Shown here one piece after another: positions 2,943 to 60,790 of a stretch of 64,000 bases of DNA. Every line of letters begins with the position of its first letter. Positions within the stretch are counted from its first letter, which is position 1. Both the position numbers and the translations under genes were made by a program. Under the pieces are notes generated by a model, which saw only the letters and a program-made list of their open reading frames with translations, did no database searches and had not been told where the DNA came from. The stretch covers positions 2,056,801 to 2,120,800 of the forward strand of contig MU004184.1 of the NCBI GenBank assembly GCA_010093605.1. The letters are read 5' to 3'. The DNA comes from Lophium mytilinum. Lineage: Eukaryota.

Positions 2943-5900
2943 ATGAAGAGGAAACGCAGCCATGGCCAGCCCGTCACGAGTCCTGCGCCGTCGAGCCAAT
3001 CTGCCCTCGCCACACCTCAGGGCGTCGTCCACCCCGTGCTACAGCGCCTCTACCCTCAATTGCAGACCCTGCGCCAGTACCTGCTGTCACGGCTGCCTGC
3101 CTCGTCTAAGAAGCGTCGTCGCCGCATAGAGCAGCTGGGGCAGTCCCCGGACCCCAATCCTAGCCCCGACGAGGATGCAGCCCTGGGCCTTCTCCTCGAC
3201 GCCACTCTGGTCGGCCTCCCCAAGGCTGGCCAGTCTGAATTCGACAAAGATGCAATTGCGCGGGATATCGAGAGCTTCTCGCAACAGCTGCCCGAGTCCA
3301 CCTTGTTCCTCAGCTCCAACCCCGGCCACTTCCTGCAACCAGAGGTATGCTTTTTTTCTCTCATTGGTCTCCTACATATCGTCCTCGTACATGAAGCAAG
3401 AATGATATCGATTCCGAAACAAGCGTGCTGTCTCACTTCTGCCCTCGAACCTCCTGCATACTGACAAATGCAAGACCGTCGACTTCGTGGTATGGCTGCT
3501 TTTCAAGAGACACCACTCCTCCCATCGGCCACCTCATCTGCTCTGCCATGGGTTCCAGCGTGCGTCTGCCCGGGGTCAGAACGACCTCGCACTCGGAGCT
3601 GCTCCCGGCATCCCAGGCATCCTGTCACATGCCTCCAACACCTATGTGGACACCGTCAAAGGGCCACTCTGGTGCAAGCTGCACTCTCACCTTGGACAGG
3701 GAGGCGACCGTGTCATGATGGACCTTCTTCTAGACTGCGGCATCTTTCGTCCGCTCCAAGGCCAGAACGGAAACTACGTCCAGATCAGTGGTTAGTTGCT
3801 TTTGTGTGACTTCAGTCGAGCTTTCTAATATGACCAGGCTTTCCGGTGTCGGAGCTCAAACCGAATTGGGCATCAAAAGTAGGTCCAGACACTATTGCTG
3901 CAAAGGACCCAAAGGCTTTGCCGATGCGCGGCCCCCTTCCAAAGTTCGAGGCCAGAACACCAGCTTCTATCAAATTTGTCCGTAGTCGGATGCTGTATGC
4001 GAGAGCGGCGCTCAATGCTAAGGGCGGAGTGCGCTTCGGCATGCGTCACATTCGTAAGGGTTCCTGTGAGGCAGCACCTGCGCAGTCTACTAATCGGCTA
4101 GACGTTTTGAATCGTTTTTCGGACAGAAATGACCCTCAGCAGACGATACATATCATGAGATATATATTCCCGCGCCAGTTCGGACTGCATAACGTGTTTA
4201 CGTCGACGGTAGATTACCGAGACACCGCTTTACCATTCAAAGACTATACCCTTCGCGAGAAAGAAATCCAGCAGCAGTTCTACCGTGAGTCGTTAAAGCA
4301 CAAGAGCGCGGATGCTAGCATAGAAGGCTTCAAATCGCATGTGCCAAAGAGACTCAGGGGTGAAGCGACAACCCTAGTCAATAGACTCCGGAAGCTAAAC
4401 CAGAAGTGCTCGTATGCAGAACTCCTGCGCCACTATTGTCCGGTCGAGGTAACTATACCGGGTATCCAATTGAGGCTAGAGTTGACTGGTATAGGGTCTA
4501 GATTTATCCCCGAAGCCAAACTGGAGAAGCAACCCACTTCAGCCTACTATGGGCGGGAAAGTGGCTGAAATTAGAGCGCAATGCGATCAGGAAGTCGCTT
4601 TACCCCATCTTGCTCACCGATCTATCGAGGAAACGTGCTTTACGGACTTAGCGTGTCCAGCAGCCCATGTCTCAGCATTCTGTCGCGCAACGATATCGAA
4701 TGTTGTACCCAATGGCTTTTGGGGTGGCGACCACAACAGGCGAATGATCATGAAGTCCGTGGATCAGTTTATTCAGCTAAGGAAGTTTGAGAGTCTTACC
4801 TTGCACCAAGTAACTCAGGGGCTCCAGGTATTCTTCCGAAATGATTGCCATGTGCGCATCTCAACTGACTAGGTTTTAGATTACTGATGTTGCCTGGCTT
4901 AAATCACCAGGCCAGCAATCCAATGATAAAACGTCCAGGTCTGACATAGTAAAACGACAAGAAGTCTTTTTCGAGCTAATCTACTACGTCTTTGACTCTT
5001 TTCTCATCCCTCTCATCAGATCAAATTTTCACGTGACTGAATCCAACGTCCACAAGAACCGCCTCTTCTACTTTCGACACGACGTATGGCGAATGCTTAG
5101 CGAACCTTCTCTGACGAACTTGAAATTGAAGATGTTTGAAGAGCTGTCAACTGAGCGTGCGACGAAGGTATTGTCATCAAGGCCTATCGGTTTTAGCAAG
5201 ATTCGCTTGCTGCCGAAAAAGACCGGAGTGCGACTTATCACGAACTTGAGGAGAAAGCAGCAAATAATGCGAAACGGAACGATGATACTAGGACGGAGTA
5301 TCAATTCCGTCATGACTCCCGTCTTCAATGTCCTGAATTATGAAAAGGTAAGCAGATAAAACTCCATAAAGTGACCGCCGCTTATCAGTGCAGTCTCATC
5401 AACCTGAAAAACTTGGGAGTTCTCTTTTCTCGGTTGGAGATATGTTTCCTAAGCTTGCAGCGTTTCAATCATCGTTGCGAGGACGGGGTCTGTCGCAGTC
5501 TAAGTTGTACTTTGCGAAGGTTGATGTCGAGTCTTGTTTCGACACGATTCCACAGCGGCGGCTAGTCACGATGGCTGATAGTCTTCTTTCTCTCGAAGAA
5601 TACCAGACTGGGCGCCACGCCGAGATGGCCCCCTTGGGGCGTTTGCAGAGCTTGGAGGGATCGTACTCAGACCCTGCTCCTATTACGAGATACGTTCCGC
5701 ATGGAAGGGCTGCAGGCGAGCTTACGTCTTTTGAGGAGCTTCTGCACGACAAATATGTTGGTACTAAAGCGAACACAATCTTCGTTGACTCTGCAGTGCG
5801 ACGATTCGAAACTAAAGACGATATGATGCGGCTTCTTCAGCAGCACGTTGAGCACAACCTTGTCAAGATTGGCAAGAAGTTTTACCGGCAGAAGAATGGT

Positions 5901-7260
5901 ATCCCGCAGGGCTCTGTGCTTTCGAGTCTATTATGTAATTTCTTCTATGCGGAACTCGAGCGAGATCTGTTGAGCTTCCTTAACGAGGACAGCCTGCTGG
6001 TGCGACTGCTTGATGACTTTCTTCTCATCACCATACGGCGAGACCACGCCGAGCGGTTCGTAAGAATCATGCATCAAGGTCACCCCGAATATGGCGTTGT
6101 GGTCAAGGCTGAGAAGTCGTTGGCCAATTTTGATATCGTCCTCCACCCTGATCACAAGATCGCCAAACCAGACTCAGATATCAGCTTCCCATTCTGCGGC
6201 ATACTCATCGACACAGGCACCCTAGACGTTGAGAGGAACCGGGAGGGCAAAGGAAGCAAGTCTCCGATTTCTTGGCCGCTAAATACAGCACTGACGATAG
6301 ACAGACATGGGCGATTCGCTGACAGTGGACATGACCAAGATGCCAGGGCAGACATTCCACCGCAAAGCATTAAAGTAAGTCAATAACGCGCTCCGGATGG
6401 GAGGAAATTGGCGAGTGGCAATGGAGCGTCGTCGTCCAACCGTTGGCCGATACGTATCAGCATTCCTTGCTCCCATCATCCAAACCCCGGGAGGTTTCCC
6501 CTGGAAGAAACTGCTGCGTTCCCCGTCTGGGGATCCCGCCACACACCGGATATTGTTGGCGATCACTTGCTGCCACGCGCAAAGGCTGCCCCTCCACTCG
6601 CTCCACTGCTTGCGAGGATGGTTTTCGCTAATAGTGCTAACCCGGGCATAGCGCATTCAAAATCCAGCTGCACGCCATGTTCCTGGACACGGGCTTCAAT
6701 TCGCTTGACACGGTGCTCGCCAACGTGTACCAAAGCTTCCTGGAAGCAGCGGTGAGGTGTGCTGAATACATGCGCCAGCTTGCCACGTCAAGAAAGCCGA
6801 ATTCGCGACTTCTTATCAGTGAGTGCTCCCCATCCGGTTTGGAGTCGCGACGCTTCAGGCGTTGCTGTCCGCTGTCGATCCAGCCACCACCGGCCCCCTC
6901 ACTAACTAGATGGGTGTTCGGCGCAGAAACTATCGACCATCTCGTCGCGTTGGCCGCAGTCCTGCTTCAGAGACCGTCCAGGCGCGTCACGACCACGCAT
7001 CAGCGGCGGTGTGCAGTCGGCAGACGGCAAGTCCAGTGGTAAGTGTGGCTTGCTCCCTCACCGCATCATCCCGTCTCAAATGCAATAATCTTACGGGCAC
7101 GGGCAGGCTCTGCTGCACTGCTTTCCACGCAGTGTTTCACAAACGACAGACGCAGCATCGCGAGCTGCTGCGGTGGCTGGACTCCAGCCTGGCTGCCGTC
7201 GTGCCGACCTCCCGCGCGGAGCTGCAGCTGTTGGCGGCGGCCACGGCTGGGCGTGCATGA
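2943..7260 (+). CDS. TERT: Telomerase reverse transcriptase, 11 exons, ~1148 aa
   Basis: Exons 2943-3344, 3475-3790, 3838-4053, 4102-4448, 4495-4827, 4880-5347, 5394-6255, 6305-6374, 6652-6818, 6927-7038 and 7107-7260 join in frame. T motif FHVTE..RLFYFRHDVW, motifs 1/2 IRLLPKK..RLITN, motif A YFAKVDVESCFDTI, B' QKNGIPQGSVLSSLLC, C LLVRLLDDFLLIT, E FPFCGILID. Confidence 0.96.
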
Positions 7261-50100: not shown

Positions 50101-51097
50101 ATGTACAAGCTCAAAGGCGGCACAGTGCCCCTCCCACGCTGGATCCTTGTCTTCCGCCTCCTCCAACTCATCTTCGCCGTCTTAATCATCGCGTTGACGA
50201 GCTACTCCATCTCGATCAACAAAGGCGGTCCCGTACGCGCATCCCTCTCCACCTCCATCCAGCTGCCCACTAACACCCCCACAGCTCCGCCCCGGCATTA
50301 TCGCCGTGCTCATAATCGCCATCTTAACCGTCTTCCCAATCCTAGCCTTCATCGCCCCCCTGCACATCGCGCAACGCCGCATCTACGACCCCCGCATCGC
50401 GCTGATCGGAGACGGCATCGCAACGTTGTGGTGGTTGGGCGCGTTTGCGGCGCTGGCGGTGTATCAGCGGATTTTCCATAGCTACGCGTACGATTACGAT
50501 AACAACTTTAAGCGGGACGAGAGGGCGCTGGAGGAGCGAGCTCTTTACTATGCCGGATGGAGGTGTGATGGGGGACGCTGTCGGCGGGCGTGGAGAACGG
50601 GGACGGCGGCGACGGTGTTTGCGGCGATTGAGTTGTGAGTTTTTCTTTTTGGCTAGGGCTGGTCGGGACTAATGCAGTGTTGTAGTCTGCTCTTCCTCTT
50701 GACGACTGTGCTCTTCCTCTACTACTACCACGCCCACATGGCCGGAGTTTCCGTATTGGGAGTATCCAGACACCACAAGGGCGGCCTTGAGGCTGGGGCA
50801 GTTGGAGCGGGGGTTGGTGCTGGAGCTGGTGCGCATCATGAGAGCCACGCTATGAACGAAATGCCTGCGAATACCGGCCCAACAGGCGTCGGTGCTGGCA
50901 ATAGTGTGGGTGGTCACCACAACGGCGGATCTATCGGTCACCACAATGGCCAATCCGTGGGCCAACATAACGGCCCAAGTGGTCCGGGGATGAATGGCGG
51001 TACTGGTGTCGTCGGGAATGCTGGAGACTATGGGGGACATAATGACATACCGCACCCGGATCGCCCGCCGCGTGAGGGCGCGTATGGCGGGATGTAG
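50101..51097 (+). CDS. MARVEL-like four-TM membrane protein with Gly/His/Asn-rich tail
   Basis: RLLQLIFAVLIIALTSY, DGIATLWWLGAFAALA and TAATVFAAIEF. Two introns (~50233-50284, ~50635-50685). Confidence 0.75.
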
Positions 51098-51628
51098 GAG
51101 TGAGTAGGAAAGAGTTTTCCAGGTTGAAGACTGCGAACTTTATGAGAAAGGGTTTTGAGAGGGTCATGATGAAGAAGTATTGCTCAAAGTAGCTTTTGAG
51201 GTTTTAGTCTATGATAATATCCCCTTCAAGAACAGTACGGGGTTTTGTTCAAGTCGATGACTAGAGGAAGAACGAAAAAGGATAATTGAGAGTATGAGAA
51301 TTGGAGAATTGCCATTTTGGGGCGACGACTAGGGGACACTCGAAACTGGCTATATTTATGTGATTGGAACGGCAGTTATCACGTGATATCCACGTGCATA
51401 TTGGAAATTGCCAGCCTTGGAGCAGCAATCAATACCCTGAAGCGCTAGAGAGGACGAGCCTGGACTTTTATGTCATGTAGGGATCCTTGAGCTTCAGTGC
51501 TTACCTTCAGGGCTGAGAGTTAATAGGCCATGCTAAACATATGTAGCTGATAAATTACGACTGAGTTTTTTTCGGCCTATTTGGATAGCCGCAAGTGCCG
51601 AAACAAGTCCTGAGAGCCGCTTGAAGAT

Positions 51629-51752
51629 GCCCAGCGCCAGGAATGCGACACTGGGCCTTCAAACGTACGATAGCTTGAAGAAATTTGATACCAAAGGTAG
51701 GTTTGGGCGACATTGCAGGCTCACCACATCGGAGCCACTAAACTACACCGGG
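51629..51752 (-). tRNA. Degenerate tRNA-like copy C with a 51-nt GT-AG intron
   Basis: Acceptor CCCGGTG/CGCTGGG, D-arm GTTTAGTGGC, intron GTGAGC..AAG 51724-51674, T-arm CCAGTG TCGCATT CCTGG. The anticodon stem does not pair well after splicing. Confidence 0.55.
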
Positions 51753-51796
51753 TTACAAAGCGCAGAGAACGGATCTCTGCAAAGAGCAAAAATCAA

Positions 51797-51931
51797 GTCC
51801 GGCGCCAGGATTCGAACACTGGGTCTTGGGATTCCAGTTGGCATAACTGTCCCTTCGTAAGGGCTTAGCGTGTGGTCGCGAGGGGTTATGACTGCTGCCT
51901 TACCATATTATAGCCACTAAACCACACCGGA
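51797..51931 (-). tRNA. tRNA-like copy B (anticodon GTT) with a 51-nt spliceosomal-type intron plus an 11-nt canonical-position tRNA intron
   Basis: After removing 51903-51853 (GTAAGG..GCTAAG..AAG): TCCGGTG TG GTTT AGTGGCTA TAAT A TGGGA CAGTTA[TGCCAACTGGA]A TCCCA AGAC CCAGTG TTCGAAT CCTGG CGCCGGA C. T5 downstream. Confidence 0.75.
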
Positions 51932-51981
51932 TTTAAGTTTGCTAGGAATAAATCACCACAAGACAGTTAGTTAAAAAAAGT

Positions 51982-52158
51982 GTCCGGCGCCGGGAATCGA
52001 CTGTTTTGTTAGAGAAAGGTACACAGACGGCGGAAGGACTCTTACACTCCGGGTCTCCCTCTTGAAGGGAGCTGCCCGCTGTGTTAGTCTTTGTGCAGCT
52101 ATTGATTGTTGTTGCCTCCGGATGGACTTACGGAATTATGCCACTAAACCACACCGGA
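51982..52158 (-). tRNA. tRNA-like copy A (anticodon TTC, Glu-like) with two spliceosomal-type introns
   Basis: After removing 52131-52072 and 52045-52001: TCCGGTG TG GTTT AGTGGCA TAAT T CCCTC CCTTCAA GAGGG AGAC CCGGAG TTCGATT CCCGG CGCCGGA C (72 nt). T7 tract at 51979-51973. Confidence 0.8.
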
Positions 52159-53249
52159 TTCCGCTGCGTGAAGAATAAATGGATACTTGAGTAGAGATTG
52201 TGCTTACTGGTCTGCTTGTCGGTGGAAGCAGATGATTCAGGATTGTACGTGCAGTACTGAGGCGAAGGGCTATTGATAATGAGCTCGACAGCAGGAGGCG
52301 TTCGTGTGTGGGGACACACGTACCAGGTAATCACACCAAAGAGATTCCAATTCATGTGTAGGTGGAGGTGAGAAGGATACCGTGTCATATAGAAATGTGT
52401 AGACTCTGGCAAGAATCATGAAGGGTTGAGAGCTGAGTTCGAGTTAAGCATCCGGATCACTCAGCGTGCAAAGAACTGGCGATGCTTCGAAGATGCGTGG
52501 CAACGGCTGTCAAGTGACGGATGCAAGGCGGAAAAAGTAAGGATGGTGGACCGTGGCAGTCTGCAGGATGGAAGTGTTCTGATTTGTGAGGGACCAATCT
52601 ACTGCCGGGGGAAACGGAGAACCCCTGCGGCGGTTGGTGAATGTCTCTGCAACTACTCCCATCCGCCATTGGCATTATTGGCAGAGTGACGATTAGTGGC
52701 GTGCGTCGAGACCGTTAAGAGCGACGCAGCCATCACCTCAGAGTAGCCTTTGCCAGCGCCATCGCCTTCGCCTTCTTCTGCCGCTGTTTCGAAATGGAGC
52801 ATCTTTGAAGGCCAGAACGATCGACCTCGGGGTTGATATGTAGAATGGCGGAGGGCAGAGATTGGACGCGGCACAGAGCGGGCGCCTTATCTGTGAAGGA
52901 TGGCATCGCATCCCCACACTGGCCAGGGTCTGTTGGAACGACTCCGACGTCGACCCTCCACGCCCTTTTCTTAGGGCTCCTCCAGCATGCGCCAAGGCAG
53001 TCGTTACGCTACTGCACTTAGAGAGCGTATGTGCAATCCGGTCCTCTTCAGTTGCACCCCGCCGCAACCCTCACCAGCCACCACGACGCCTGCAAGTCTT
53101 CAGCTCGTAGTAACATGCCGTAGTATTTAGCTACGCAGCTACGCGCCTGTGACTCCAAGCCCTACGAACCGCCCTATATCTATCCCGTCCGCCCGAACGT
53201 CGGGATTCCTAGAGGTATGCCGATACTGGACGCCTGGTAGCCTCGCAGA

Positions 53250-55984
53250 ATGCCTCGACCGAAGAAACCCGGCGCTGCTGAGCCCAAAAAGCGTTCGCGC
53301 AATGGCTGCTGGTATAGACCCTGCGCGCGGGACGCTCGCCCCCATTTATAAATTAAGGGACCAGTCTGACGTTGCTTATAGGCCCTGCAAGGCACGGAAG
53401 GTGAAATGGTAAACTTCCCATATTGTATTACCCCGCCCAATATCATAGTAACCCTCTCCCAGTGGCGAGGAGAAGCCGCGCTGTCTCAATTGCGAGCGTC
53501 AGGGCGAAGCTTGCGACTATAGCATCCGTCTCAATTGGAATGGCCGCTCAAAGAAGAGCGCAGACACTTCGGGGTCTGAAACTCCCCAGAGTGGCACCAG
53601 TAGCCCGTATACCTCGACCTTCTCCCAATCCGACATCTTCGCGCCGCCCGCGTATACCCATACCCATACCCCTTCGCCCGTATCTGGGCCACCTCCGCAT
53701 ATCTTCCACCATGCGAGAGGACATTCGAATACATCTGCGCCCAGCCCCGAGGTCTCCATGATTGATCCAGAGTTGATGAGGATCAGTCAGAGCCAGACAC
53801 AACCCATCATGGCTGCGTACGACACGTTGGAGATGCCGAGACGAGGGAACCCGACCTCTGCACCCATTGACAATCGTCTTCAGCAAGTGCAGTATCGAGG
53901 TAACATAGACTACCCGTCACCTACTGCCTCGAGTTTTGATGGCGGGAGTTATGGAGGAGGCTACATGTCTAGCGGGACTATTGACTCGCCCGCTTCTCCT
54001 CCTGCAATGCCACCCCCTGGGCGAAATATGTTCTCGCACGACTCGGCGACTGGTGGGGCTAGGCCTTACCCAGAGATGTCTGAACTGTCTGGACACCAAG
54101 CTAAGCGCCAGAAACGAAGCCATTCTAGGGACTCTCCAAATGTACTCCCCGGGCCTGGAAAGCAGGATAGTAGATGGGAGAAGGGAAGCGGGACTCTGTC
54201 TGTTGCAGACGCATTTTCGCCGAATTCAGGTCCGCTTACCCCTTACAGCCCATTTCAGGGTAATCCTTTGACGCCCGTTTCTTCAGTCGCCTCGGAAGAC
54301 AGCGGCATGCGTAATGGCCCTGGCCCTACTACTAGCCCGTACCCTCCACCGGATCTTCGTCGACTTTCCGTCAACTCTCTGCTCACTGGCCCTCCGGGTG
54401 ATAATCCGTCTGGATGGAATACCGACGTGCATGGCAGACATTATCCAGTTGCCGACTCAAGCACAACTACATATGGATACGATGTTGGAAATCCTGACCT
54501 AGATACTCTGAAGAACGACGATTTGAATGCTATCGCTGTATTCAGTCCTCCTGTTGGTAGTGCCGGGTTTGCAACCGACAGTCAATTCGATTCGCAAACC
54601 GAGAACGGCTTTGGCGACCGATCTAAAGATATCGCGTTCGAAAAAGGGGGATACTATGCAAAACCAGTTCCTATAAAAATCTCGAGATCACTGGAGCCAC
54701 TTCCAAGGCTCTTGCACGACAATCCAATGAACCTCCTATACTTTCATCATTTCCTGAACCACACAGCTAGGATATTAGTCCCGCATGATTGCGAGCAAAA
54801 TCCTTTCAGGAGCATTCTCCCACGTAGTGAGTTAGACTCCTTCAATGAGTAATCCCTAGCTGACCCGAACAGTGGCTGTCCAAAACGAGACCGTTCTCTG
54901 CTTGCTGTTAGCCTTTTCTGCGAGCCATCGCGCGCGTCTCTTAAATCATCCCGAGCCAGCTAATCGAATAGCCGTCTGGGTGCAGGATGTGTTTCCCAAG
55001 CTCCGACAGGATCTAAATAGCAACAACGAAATCTCCAATGCCACACTTACTACAGCCATCATGCTTGCATCTTTGGAGATAATCTCACCAAACACCTTCG
55101 AAGTTCCAATATCCTGGCAGAACCACCTCACCGTCGCTCGCCAAATGATCATTGCTCGTGGAGGGCCAAAGACTGTGCAGCGTAGCGACCCAACAGCCTC
55201 GTTCTTAGGACGTTGGTTTGCGTATCTCGATGTCCTCGGCAGTCTAAGCGGTGGCAAGAACGACCTTCCCCTGGATTCGTCTTACTGGTCCGACGACGAC
55301 TACGATACAGACGAAGACTATCAAATCGACTGCTTGCTTGGATTTACGAGTCGCTGTATTGGTATTCTCGCGAGGATTGCCGAACTTGCAAAGCAGTGTG
55401 AGAAGATCCGTTTTGACGAAGATGGCAACGTCCGAGAAGGGTGGAAGCCTACCCCCGAGATCCTTGAAAAGGCCGACAAGATCAAGGAAGACCTAGCAGA
55501 GGGCCGCGATCACGTGTACAAGGGCTGCAATCATCGAAGCGCGGATAACTCCGAGAGCGAAGCTGGTTGGGACGCTCTGGAGATTTACGCAACGAATGAA
55601 GCTTTCCACTGGGCTGGACTGATCCACCTCTGTCGCAGAGTGTTGGGGAAGCCGGCAACTGATCCAGACGTCCAGAATGCCATACGAGAGATCGTTGGAA
55701 ATCTGTATAAGGTCCGTCGCGGAAGCACGGCTGAAGCGTGTCTCCTGTTCCCGATGTTCACCGCGGGCTGCGATGCCATCGACGCAACCCAGAGGAACAA
55801 GATCATGGAGAGATTGAAGAGCGTGGAGGGATTTGGAATGACTCAGGTATGTTGCGAAGATTACCGTCGCAAAGGGGAATGACTAACGAGGTTCTAGATC
55901 CACAAAGCACGACAACTTATGCAAAAGGTCTGGGACACTGGAAAGCCGTGGGAAACGTTGGTGTATGGAGAGTTTTTGGGTTGA
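53250..55984 (+). CDS. Zn2Cys6 transcription factor with Fungal_trans_2-type C-terminal domain
   Basis: MPRPKKPGAAEPKKRSRNGCW|PCKARKVKC|GEEKPRCLNCERQGEACDY, then YFHHFLNHTARILVPHD, WFAYLDVLGSLS and CLLFPMFTAGC. Confidence 0.92.
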
Positions 55985-58896: not shown

Positions 58897-60024
58897 TCAA
58901 TCCGCGGGTGGTTTTGTGGGGCCTGATTGGGAGGATAGGGCAGTGATGCTGGATCCTGGGGTGTCGACCCATGTCATTGTTTCCGAGAAACTGAGGGTTT
59001 GGAAGGATGGGTTTTCGGTTGTCAGTCGCATTGCGTTTGGTGGTAGTGGTTGCTCGTCTTCCGTGGTTGACTGGCTTCCGGGTGGTGGGTCGGCAGAATG
59101 AGGGTCTCTGCTCTGCAGATTCTCTGGTTGCTGGTCTTCTTGTTTTGACGTCGTCCCATCGTCTGGAGTTTTTGGAGAGCTAGGATCCTTATTCTTCGCA
59201 TTCTCCACGTGCTGTTTCTTCCAAGTTGACTCTATTCGGTCAGGTTGAGGTGACTTAGAGGGAAGTTTCGTTGGTTTCCCAGCAGCCTCCAATTTCTTGT
59301 CAACGTCTTCGAGTTTGGCGAGAATGAAGGTAACACTGGCATCTCTCGCCTTGTTTATTCGATCCAATGCTGGCTTCTCCATAGTGTCGTAGTCTGGAGT
59401 TTTACTTGGAGTAGGCGGAACTGGGTCCGTGTCAGCCAGAAAAGCCGTCTTGTCCGCCAGTAATTGTCTCATGGTAGCGATATTCTGATCTCTGGCCCGC
59501 AGGCGGTTCCGGAGTCTGTGTAGAGCGGCCTCCTCTTCTACCTTCTTTCTCTTTCGAGCCTCAGATTGCTTGCCCTCCTCTACCGCATCCAGAAATTTCT
59601 GCACGGCCTGTTTTGCGACGGTCTCCATATGCGTAAACCGAACCGGTCCGATGTTCCCCCCTTTCATCCACCGCGCAACAACCACACTACCTTCTACCTC
59701 CAAATCGTTAAGTACTTTCTCAAGGCGCTTTCCAGCCCACTGCTCTCCATCGTCGTCATGCCCCGTTTCCATGATTGGGGGAGCATTGGGAACAATAGAT
59801 CGCTGTCGCGAGGGCTTCCGCCATGCTGCGATTTTATGATTCGCATAGTCAGCGACTCGGGGGCCCTTGAAGTCTGGTAATTTCTGTAATTGTTTTGCGG
59901 GCACCGAGGCTGAGAAAACGCCGACGAAGGTAGAGCCGCGCTCCTCAACCTCTCCTGAGCGGAAAATGCTAGAGTAAATGTCTTCGAATGGCGGCGACGG
60001 AGCGCGCGTACGCTTGCGAGACAT
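58897..60024 (-). CDS. IMPACT/UPF0029-family protein with coiled-coil C-terminus
   Basis: ERGSTFVG, ANHKIAAWR, HDDDGEQWAGKRL and VVVARWMKGGNIGPVRFTH. Confidence 0.88.
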   Translation of the reverse strand: MSRKRTRAPSPPFEDIYSSIFRSGEVEERGSTFVGVFSASVPAKQLQKLPDFKGPRVADYANHKIAAWRKPSRQRSIVPNAPPIMETGHDDDGEQWAGKRLEKVLNDLEVEGSVVVARWMKGGNIGPVRFTHMETVAKQAVQKFLDAVEEGKQSEARKRKKVEEEAALHRLRNRLRARDQNIATMRQLLADKTAFLADTDPVPPTPSKTPDYDTMEKPALDRINKARDASVTFILAKLEDVDKKLEAAGKPTKLPSKSPQPDRIESTWKKQHVENAKNKDPSSPKTPDDGTTSKQEDQQPENLQSRDPHSADPPPGSQSTTEDEQPLPPNAMRLTTENPSFQTLSFSETMTWVDTPGSSITALSSQSGPTKPPAD

Positions 60025-60790
60025 GTTTGTTCTAGTCAATTTTGTATGGAACCGAGATTGAGAAGAATGGTTGATGTGGGGAGGTTAGAAGAAGTTCGGT
60101 GTTGGTGCCTGCGGGGATAAGGCTCCAGCGCAAGGCTGCGTCACGTGCGGCGATCTGGGGGTTTATCTTCACGCACTGCCTCCTTCGCCCCCACGGTTCA
60201 ACCTCGCCCTAAAGAACTCTCCGGCATGGCCTCTCGCTTCTTGTCACGTCACAACGGCGCTTGCCTGTTCAGCCCCAGGGGCAGAGCCGTTGGTCGGTCC
60301 GATGGTTGGCTAGAGAGCGCCACGAGCTGAAGAGAAGCTCCTAGAGGCTGGGCATGCATCTGTCCAACATCAACACAATGGCGGCTAGGAAGCAGTACGG
60401 TGGATTTAGATAAGTTTTCTTCTCACCAGATATCACTCGGCATCGATAAAACATAGCATGCTTCAAGATATTACTCTTCTGGACATCGCTAGCAAGATCC
60501 CGAAGTCGAAGGGAGCCTGGTGGTTGAGATTACCCCAAAGCCACCAAAAGCACTATCCCGTTGTTGTGGCTTCGATCGTATCCCAGATAGTTCCACGCCC
60601 CCTTTCTGCCAGCATCATGGCTCTGCAAGGGCGGGCAAAAGGGCAAAGCTTGTCTTTAGGCGCCTATGCAACAGCTAGGGCCTCTCAGCTGAGTATATAC
60701 CTTATGAGGGGCTTTCCTCTTCTCTCTCTTCTTTCCTACTAGTCACTCTTTACATTATATACCCTCCGTCTTTACCTGCGTGCAGTCGCT

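Follow-up and report, generated by a model that had tools for sequence, protein, structure and literature searches.

Tandem tRNA-like units with short GT..AG introns in the genome of Lophium mytilinum

Can a tRNA-shaped RNA depend on the spliceosome for its fold? The question is raised by a small locus of the fungus Lophium mytilinum, contained in a stretch of 64,000 nucleotides (nt) of genomic DNA (GenBank assembly GCA_010093605.1, contig MU004184.1, positions 2,056,801 to 2,120,800 of the forward strand); this whole stretch is referred to below as the window, and all coordinates are given in its own numbering. Three tRNA-like units stand here in tandem, all on the minus strand, within the gap between two plus-strand genes: unit C (52158-51982), unit B (51931-51797) and unit A (51752-51629), with a spacer of 50 nt between C and B and one of 44 nt between B and A. 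A preliminary description, made from the letters alone, had reported three such units between 51629 and 52158, and these limits are exact, 51629 being the discriminator base of A and 52158 the first base of C. We favor the explanation that the array yields tRNA-derived functional RNAs of a non-standard tRNA shape, whose fold depends on the spliceosome, and we put its probability at roughly one half.

Spliceosomal-type introns in units B and C

The locus is spanned by a 7389-nt contig of a public run (X3, whose organism label differs from that of the source runs), which shows no mismatches over 51300-52500 apart from four exact skips of 51, 45, 60 and 54 nt. Each skipped segment has the ends CT..AC on the plus strand, that is, GT..AG on the minus strand. 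The 51-nt skip (51853-51903; cut +1) lies in unit B, those of 45 nt (52001-52045, in the T-loop) and 60 nt (52072-52131) in unit C, and that of 54 nt (52270-52323) in a leader upstream of C, outside the tRNA-like units. Three of the four fall at exon borders that restore the tRNA shape. The inserts of B and C, together with that of the leader, are true introns of the spliceosomal type, removed as exact GT..AG skips.

The splice signals listed in the preliminary description are real as far as these two units go. The donors do follow the second base of the anticodon stem (GTAAGT in C, GTAAGG in B, GTGAGC in A), the insert lengths are 60 nt in C and 51 nt in both B and A, and the 60- and 51-nt skips of the contig share their borders with the proposed inserts. 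An intron had been assigned to every copy; this is shown only for B and C, because the proposed insert of A (51674-51724, 51 nt, donor GTGAGC) is retained, the contig piece 51300-51851 being continuous. One addition has to be made, as unit C has a second GT..AG insert, the 45-nt segment in its T-loop (52001-52045).

Unit C is composed of three exons. The first (52132-52158, 27 nt) contains the 5' strand of the acceptor stem, the D-arm and the first two bases of the anticodon stem. Intron 1 (52072-52131, 60 nt) has a GTAAGT donor and an ACTAAC branch-like site, and it ends at the second AG, 12 nt after CTAAC, an earlier AG, 5 nt from the branch-like A, being skipped over. The second exon is a 26-nt micro-exon (52046-52071) that carries the rest of the anticodon arm with the loop CCTTCAA, the variable region AGAC and the 5' strand of the T-stem with a bulged A, and extends to T54. 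Intron 2 (52001-52045, 45 nt; GTAAGA donor, TCTAAC branch-like site, CAG acceptor, CTAAC 8 nt before the AG) is located in the T-loop between positions 54 and 55, and its removal restores the T-loop TTCGATT exactly; since it splits the B-box, C would lack a normal internal promoter for RNA polymerase III (Pol III). The rest of the T-loop, the 3' strands of the T-stem and the acceptor stem, and C73 are supplied by exon 3 (51982-52000).

Unit B has two exons. Exon 1 (51904-51931, 28 nt) is followed by an intron of 51 nt (51853-51903) with a GTAAGG donor, a GCTAAG branch-like site and an AAG acceptor, and exon 2 (51797-51852, 56 nt) runs from the anticodon arm, with an extended hairpin, through the variable region AGAC, the T-arm with a bulged T and the acceptor 3' strand to C73. 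A-box-like and B-box-like sequences, as judged by the general consensus for these boxes, are present in this unit along with a T-tract. With respect to the fungal branch-site consensus CTRAY, both C introns contain CTAAC, the motifs of B (CTAAG) and of the leader (CTCAT) are weaker matches, and A has none. An intron candidate of a neighboring transcription-factor gene is alike (46 nt, GTGAGT..GCTGAC..CAG), and the candidates in coding genes of the window measure 41-55 nt.

Could the four skips be DNA deletions in another strain, or errors of assembly, at a locus that is in fact unspliced? The kind of molecule behind X3 is only guessed, and its 32.7 million letters would suit a fungal genome too. 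Such an artefact is nevertheless hardly credible: it would take four independent, exact GT..AG deletions of 45-60 nt, all on one strand, with no other difference over about 1 kb; a k-mer contig joins across a skip only if the reads hold the junction; and even a DNA copy missing exactly these segments would imply a spliced RNA intermediate.

Both spacers are retained in the contig, as are a Pol III terminator-like T7 tract 2 nt past unit C (51973-51979, minus strand) and a T5 tract 4 nt past unit B (51788-51792, minus strand); since the contig reads through all of them, its piece 51903-52000 being continuous across the T7 tract, a long transcript covers the array. On the minus strand its upstream part consists of an exon (52324-52500, the contig running on past 52500), the leader intron (52270-52323, 54 nt, GTACGT..TAG with the branch-like CTCAT) and 111 nt of leader (52159-52269) that are joined to unit C in the contig piece 52132-52269. 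The leader sequence (52159-52500) is also present in three relatives at about 92-96% identity. These relatives come from three runs, two of them air metagenomes and the other under a third organism label, and are about 92-97% identical to the locus over the aligned pieces. An open reading frame (ORF) of 104 codons crosses three splice junctions of the spliced transcript; the variants of the relatives led us to reject it as coding. Among 17 differences, four are intronic and 13 exonic, and as only three of the latter are synonymous and ten are non-synonymous, the frame is probably non-coding; by our estimate, one of this length would be expected by chance about 0.6 times in the spliced stretch. 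A fourth, degenerate unit suspected by eye around the 54-nt intron (about 52230-52345) was likewise dismissed, as nhmmer gave no match there at E up to 100.

Structure and conservation of the units

After the two observed skips unit C is 72 nt long and is called tRNA-Glu(ttc) by ARAGORN at default settings. Its cloverleaf pairs at 20 of 21 positions, the only miss being T13-T22 in the D-stem; spliced B, once an 11-nt insert is also taken out, reaches the same 20/21 with the same single miss. A cloverleaf with stems of 7, 4, 5 and 5 bp is attained only after the observed splices (in B, also without the insert), and the first two anticodon-stem pairs of both units form only across the junction of a spliceosomal intron. 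T8, A14, the GG of the D-loop and TTCGA of the T-loop are present in B and C. The acceptor stem pairs 7/7 in all three units, and their 3' halves are complete.

The 11-nt insert of B (51833-51843, minus strand) was recognized from the sequence and its RNAfold structure. Spliced B is 84 nt long and has an anticodon loop of 18 nt, which consists of 7 nt and the insert, placed after position 37, that is, at the 37/38 site. According to RNAfold, the insert pairs with C32-T36 in a 5-bp helix with a 5-nt end loop and leaves a 3-nt GAA bulge at the 3' cut, so that the arm of spliced B is predicted as a hairpin of 5 + 5 bp with the GAA bulge. The partner of position 32 is intron base -3, counted back from the 3' cut. 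A pair between position 32 and intron base -3, with a 3-nt bulge at the 3' cut, is the arrangement of substrates of the eukaryotic tRNA endonuclease. A figure legend of PMC4090602 mentions the anticodon-intron (A-I) pair, and canonical eukaryotic tRNA introns range from 6 to 133 nt according to the part of the same source that was available. The model suggests that the 11-nt insert is a canonical intron of the tRNA-endonuclease type. It is retained in the X3 contig, as expected if the contig represents a precursor. Its removal by hand leaves the loop CAGTTAA with the triplet GUU. The preserved architecture of a canonical pre-tRNA intron suggests that B enters the normal pathway of tRNA maturation. 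The anticodon triplets of the preliminary description, TTC in C and GTT in B, are thus both present, the latter being embedded in the 18-nt loop.

Several features set the units apart from ordinary tRNAs. Under the fold of the preliminary description, each of the three has, as it stated, a residue other than U at position 33 (C in unit C, A in unit B, C in unit A), a single extra base in the 5' strand of the T-stem between positions 52 and 53 (A in C, T in B and A), which adjoins the G53-C61 pair, and C73. Might B and C be working elongator tRNAs all the same, C decoding Glu and B decoding Asn, unusual only in an expression routed through the spliceosome, for example to tie their supply to a promoter of RNA polymerase II (Pol II)? 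The tRNA-Glu(ttc) call for spliced C speaks for this, as do the insert of B, at the canonical position with the expected helix, and the T-tracts after B and C, as in tRNA genes; moreover, the loops CCTTCAA and CAGTTAA presumably differ from the standard Glu and Asn loops mainly at position 33. However, U33 is absent from both intact units, the bulged base lies next to G53-C61, the B-box of C is split, and C73, as we understand the identity sets, fits neither Glu nor Asn. Ordinary tRNA genes for Glu and Asn are almost certainly present in the species as well, and we regard the elongator explanation as improbable. Given the non-U33, the one-base bulge of the T-stem and C73, B and C are probably not ordinary elongator tRNAs, and by their sequence they probably serve some specialized or regulatory use. 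The earlier statement that these are not ordinary tRNAs is thus supported indirectly by the loss of U33, the T-stem bulge, C73 and the split B-box, and qualified by the ARAGORN call for C, while its companion, that selection does not act on decoding identity, claims more than the data allow.

The comparison between units separates exons from their surroundings. Exon identity is 74-86%, against about 50% in introns and flanks. The 5' exons agree at 24 of 28 positions between B and C and at 22 of 28 between A and B, the last 35 nt of B and C at 26 of 35, and the 3' parts of A and B at 27 of 36; in each of these four comparisons none of 1000 shuffles reached the score. The introns of B and C agree in 31 of 60 aligned columns (93/1000 shuffles reach the score) and those of A and C in 29 of 62 (335/1000), which is the level of chance, while for A and B (28/54) only 16/1000 shuffles do so, pointing to a faint residual similarity; the preliminary view of insert interiors without evident similarity holds with this small reservation. 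Similar values were obtained for the 40-nt upstream flanks (B and C, 21/41, 71/1000; A and C, 24/45, 71/1000; A and B, 22/43, 205/1000) and for the spacers downstream of B and C (26/51, 250/1000). From these identities the duplication seems so old that neutral sequence has lost its resemblance, whereas the exons have kept theirs.

The paired positions changed together, as had been noted. In the anticodon stem, B and C have different bases on both sides of all five pairs, each of which is nonetheless Watson-Crick (CCCTC/GAGGG in C, TGGGA/TCCCA in B); pair 51-63 is G-C in C and A-T in B and A, and pair 1-72 is T-A in B and C and C-G in A. The sequence comparison thus supports the view that the tRNA-like structure has been maintained while introns and spacers were randomized.

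Unit A is degenerate. Its cloverleaf pairs at only 17 of 21 positions, with 2/5 in the anticodon stem, and its T-loop reads TCGCATT; in the relative X4 its 5' half is too diverged to align, and a loose end shows that the donor and the D-loop have changed. The equivalence of the three copies, implied by the preliminary description, is therefore not supported: A is unspliced, has a broken anticodon stem and a diverged 5' half in a relative, and looks like a copy in decay.

The decay of A would be expected if the whole array were a relic, an old disabled set of tRNA genes inside an intergenic non-coding transcript, with functionless exons and with inserts that are spliced incidentally, any short GT..branch..AG segment of a Pol II transcript being removed in this fungus. 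Segments of this kind are not rare: a strict full-signal pattern for short introns occurs 8 times on the minus and 14 times on the plus strand of the 64 kb, the two introns of C being among the eight. The non-U33 and the bulge of the T-stem could be damage, no homologues outside close relatives came up in a metagenome pattern scan, and insertions in the arms of eukaryotic tRNA genes, except in nucleomorphs and Cyanidioschyzon, are usually read as marks of pseudogenes (PMC4090602, in the part available). Neutral decay, however, would randomize the exons too, and they retain 74-86% identity; B and C each keep 20/21 pairs, five of five anticodon-stem pairs were changed on both sides without loss of pairing, the T-loop of C is intact once intron 2 is removed, and B preserves an anticodon-intron helix of the pre-tRNA type. 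We consider a relic unlikely, though far from negligible.

It could also be supposed that the tRNA shapes are only processing modules, signals for RNase P and RNase Z that cut or end a host non-coding RNA in the manner of MALAT1, with the released pieces as by-products. The units are indeed part of a longer, spliced transcript that has a leader and its own intron, their anticodon identities differ, and the leader ORF has not been kept as coding (3 synonymous and 10 non-synonymous among the 13 exonic variants). Yet no conserved cargo is apparent, the spacers being at chance similarity, the contig still joins the units, so that cleavage is at least incomplete, and the anticodon-intron helix of B would be needless in a mere cleavage signal; there is little to recommend this explanation either. 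A role at the DNA level, as TFIIIC or insulator sites, was rejected, as the B-box of C is split and covariation of stems is not needed for protein binding.

The preferred explanation, that of spliceosome-dependent, tRNA-derived functional RNAs, implies the following route. As the contig shows, a long minus-strand transcript covers the array with its spacers and T-tracts, and four short GT..AG introns are removed from it, one from the leader, one from B after position 28 and two from C. RNase P and RNase Z would then cut the spliced precursor, CCA would be added to the products, and the tRNA splicing endonuclease and a ligase would finish B by removing the 11-nt insert. The predicted products are tRNA-shaped RNAs of 72-73 nt. 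In its broadest form, which we put forward more tentatively and slightly short of an even chance, this would be a class of nuclear tRNA-shaped RNAs with true spliceosomal introns, even in the T-loop, produced from a spliced long transcript; one member would require both the spliceosome and the tRNA endonuclease, production would be gated by Pol II and splicing, and the role would lie outside ordinary decoding, for instance as regulators, decoys or donors in non-ribosomal reactions.

A number of results weigh against this explanation. With regard to the transcript, X3 is marked only 'RNA?', a guess, none of the runs listed being recorded as RNA; the contigs give neither level, ends nor strand, the minus strand being deduced from skips that read GT..AG; and the 7389-nt contig probably merges neighboring genes. 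With regard to structure, spliced B receives no ARAGORN call at default settings, because of its 18-nt anticodon loop, and its exon 2 alone has no Rfam match; the RNAfold z-scores of spliced B (-1.2) and spliced C (-2.2) are modest, and in neither case is the minimum-energy fold a clean cloverleaf. With regard to distribution, when metagenomes were scanned for the pattern of an 18-mer from the 5' exon, seven loci were returned, none of them related and none with GT..AG inserts, and the scan found no homologues outside close relatives. Finally, conservation in the relatives speaks only weakly for selection on units B and C. There are 5 differences over 150 nt in X5 and 8 over 205 nt in X6, none of them in the 57-62 nt that cover exon 1 of C and the start of its intron, so that the intron start is as invariant as the exon and the comparison has low power. 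X4 shows 10 differences in 177 nt over unit B, of which four are listed, three in the B-A spacer and one in the B intron; no listed difference falls in the 56-nt exon 2 of B, and six of the ten lie in unlisted end zones.

Detection and genomic setting

The array is not seen by standard tools on genomic DNA. ARAGORN at its default score, with or without the intron mode, found no tRNA genes in the window (168 calls at lowered thresholds were taken as noise and were not used), and Rfam gave nothing at gathering score and no tRNA match at E up to 10. The three units can be recognized by their own sequences. A 16-mer of the 5' exon occurs three times in the window, the mean expectation being 0.57, and an nhmmer profile of the 5' exon matches all three units (E 1e-5 to 3e-5). 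A profile of the 3' part finds A and B at E 6e-8 and 4e-7, and the split 3' part of C at E 0.11 and 1.7. No other match in the window was better than E 3.8 with these profiles.

The seven metagenome loci were read as tRNA arrays and unrelated DNA of other organisms. In one of them (L006, about 3001-3165) a tRNA-like start stands at the pattern match, with acceptor strands that pair, by eye, across an insert of about 80-90 nt; the sequence, which ARAGORN does not call, perhaps represents a tRNA gene of another organism with a large intron. In three tRNA-rich loci (L001, L005 and L007) the 18-mer lies, again by eye, within a fragment resembling a tRNA 5' half that follows a T-arm and acceptor 3' end; neither the fragment nor the preceding tRNA-like sequence is called by ARAGORN, and L005 has extra sequence relative to L001 and L007.

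A motif, ATTTATTC, is found on the minus strand about 22 nt upstream of both C (about 52172-52179, within the leader) and B (about 51945-51952), in flanks that are otherwise at chance similarity. Together with the T-tracts it could be an ancestral remnant of Pol III architecture, or a sign of dual transcription.

Of the two plus-strand neighbors, the first is a MARVEL-domain gene, the last long ORF of which ends at 51097 (3' end at about 51450 by eye), and the second is a fungal transcription-factor gene (ORFs within 53452-55882) whose Atlas neighbors are Ascomycota. The one Rfam match in the window at E up to 10, to NEAT1_3 (51031-51184, plus strand) at the end of the last long ORF of the MARVEL gene and just past it, scores 19.9 bits (E 2.3), the gathering score being 55, and was taken as chance. 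The window is nuclear DNA of an ascomycete, and its Pfam matches include TERT, fungal-specific transcription factor, Pam17 and MARVEL, as well as RabGAP and PhoD-like domains. No tRNA-dependent enzyme or biosynthetic cluster was found among the 62 scanned ORFs, out of 108 of at least 130 aa in the window. A telomerase reverse transcriptase gene, divided over several ORFs and carrying the domains Telomerase_RBD, RVT_1 and TERT_C, occupies 3834-7039 (plus strand). An ORF at 58900-60084 (minus strand), about 7 kb away from the array, has a UPF0029 domain; we take it to belong to the IMPACT/Yih1 family, regulators of the uncharged-tRNA sensor Gcn2.

Relation to known systems and significance

With canonical nuclear tRNA genes the units share the cloverleaf, the elbow nucleotides, the downstream T-tracts and, in B, an insert at 37/38 with an anticodon-intron helix. 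Unlike in those genes, the introns are located after position 28 (B and C) and between 54 and 55 (C) and have spliceosomal signals, U33 is absent, the T-stem is bulged, the B-box of C is split, and the units escape ARAGORN and Rfam on genomic DNA. As they lack detection on genomic DNA, U33, a regular T-stem and a restriction of introns to 37/38, the array is not a member of the canonical tRNA gene family.

A tRNA shape inside a long transcript is known elsewhere. The 3' end of MALAT1 carries a tRNA-like element that is cut from a long transcript. The tRNA-Sec of trypanosomes is transcribed by Pol II, according to the part of PMC2943599 at hand. Both resemble the present units in not being classical Pol III units, but both are contiguous in DNA and require no splicing for their cloverleaf. 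Tandem tRNA-related sequence outside the normal gene set, in local repeats, is also reminiscent of short interspersed elements (SINEs) derived from tRNA and of pseudogene arrays; unlike SINEs, however, the units are complete cloverleaves of tRNA length with paired ends, have neither a SINE body nor a tail, and occur as three tandem copies in 64 kb.

Introns at unusual places in tRNA genes have been described in Cyanidioschyzon merolae and in nucleomorphs, where they interrupt the D, anticodon-stem and T arms and some genes contain more than one (PMC4090602, PMC3728597; available portions). The nucleomorph introns measure 3-24 nt, whereas those described here have 45-60 nt with GT, branch-like and AG signals, and the introns of C. 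merolae are attributed to an endonuclease that recognizes bulge-helix-bulge motifs (both from the accessible text of PMC4090602).

The closest parallels to the splicing itself are found among other structured RNAs. Spliceosomal introns are known in U6, U2, U5 and U1 small nuclear RNAs (snRNAs) and in ascomycete ribosomal DNA (rDNA), a list in which the available part of PMC5855946 does not name tRNA. In the U6 gene of fission yeast, in U2, U5 and U1 of Rhodotorula and in ascomycete rDNA, as here, a GT..AG intron interrupts a structured RNA that can fold only after splicing. No tRNA or tRNA-like gene is among these, however, and a 72-nt unit of the present array can hold two such introns, one of them in the T-loop, with the units standing in tandem inside a longer transcript.

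In the accessible parts of a large tRNA review (PMC10275265) and of a recent article about intron types (PMC12530127), tRNA introns and spliceosomal introns are treated as separate systems, the spliceosome serving Pol II transcripts and a protein endonuclease serving tRNA introns at 37/38. No report of spliceosomal introns in tRNA or tRNA-like genes was found in the literature open to search, subscription journals being outside its scope. What appears to be new is the presence of mRNA-type introns in tRNA-like units of a long transcript, both parent kinds being already known.

If the explanation favored here is true, an RNA of tRNA shape would depend on the spliceosome, and in one unit on both nuclear splicing systems, thereby crossing the divide between the two, and tRNA would be added to the few structured RNAs in which mRNA-type introns are known (U6, U2, U5, U1 and rDNA). 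Sequences filed as tRNA pseudogenes with arm insertions could then be live genes that are invisible to standard tRNA finders, and the locus would offer a simple, testable case of a tRNA-like RNA under the control of Pol II and splicing.

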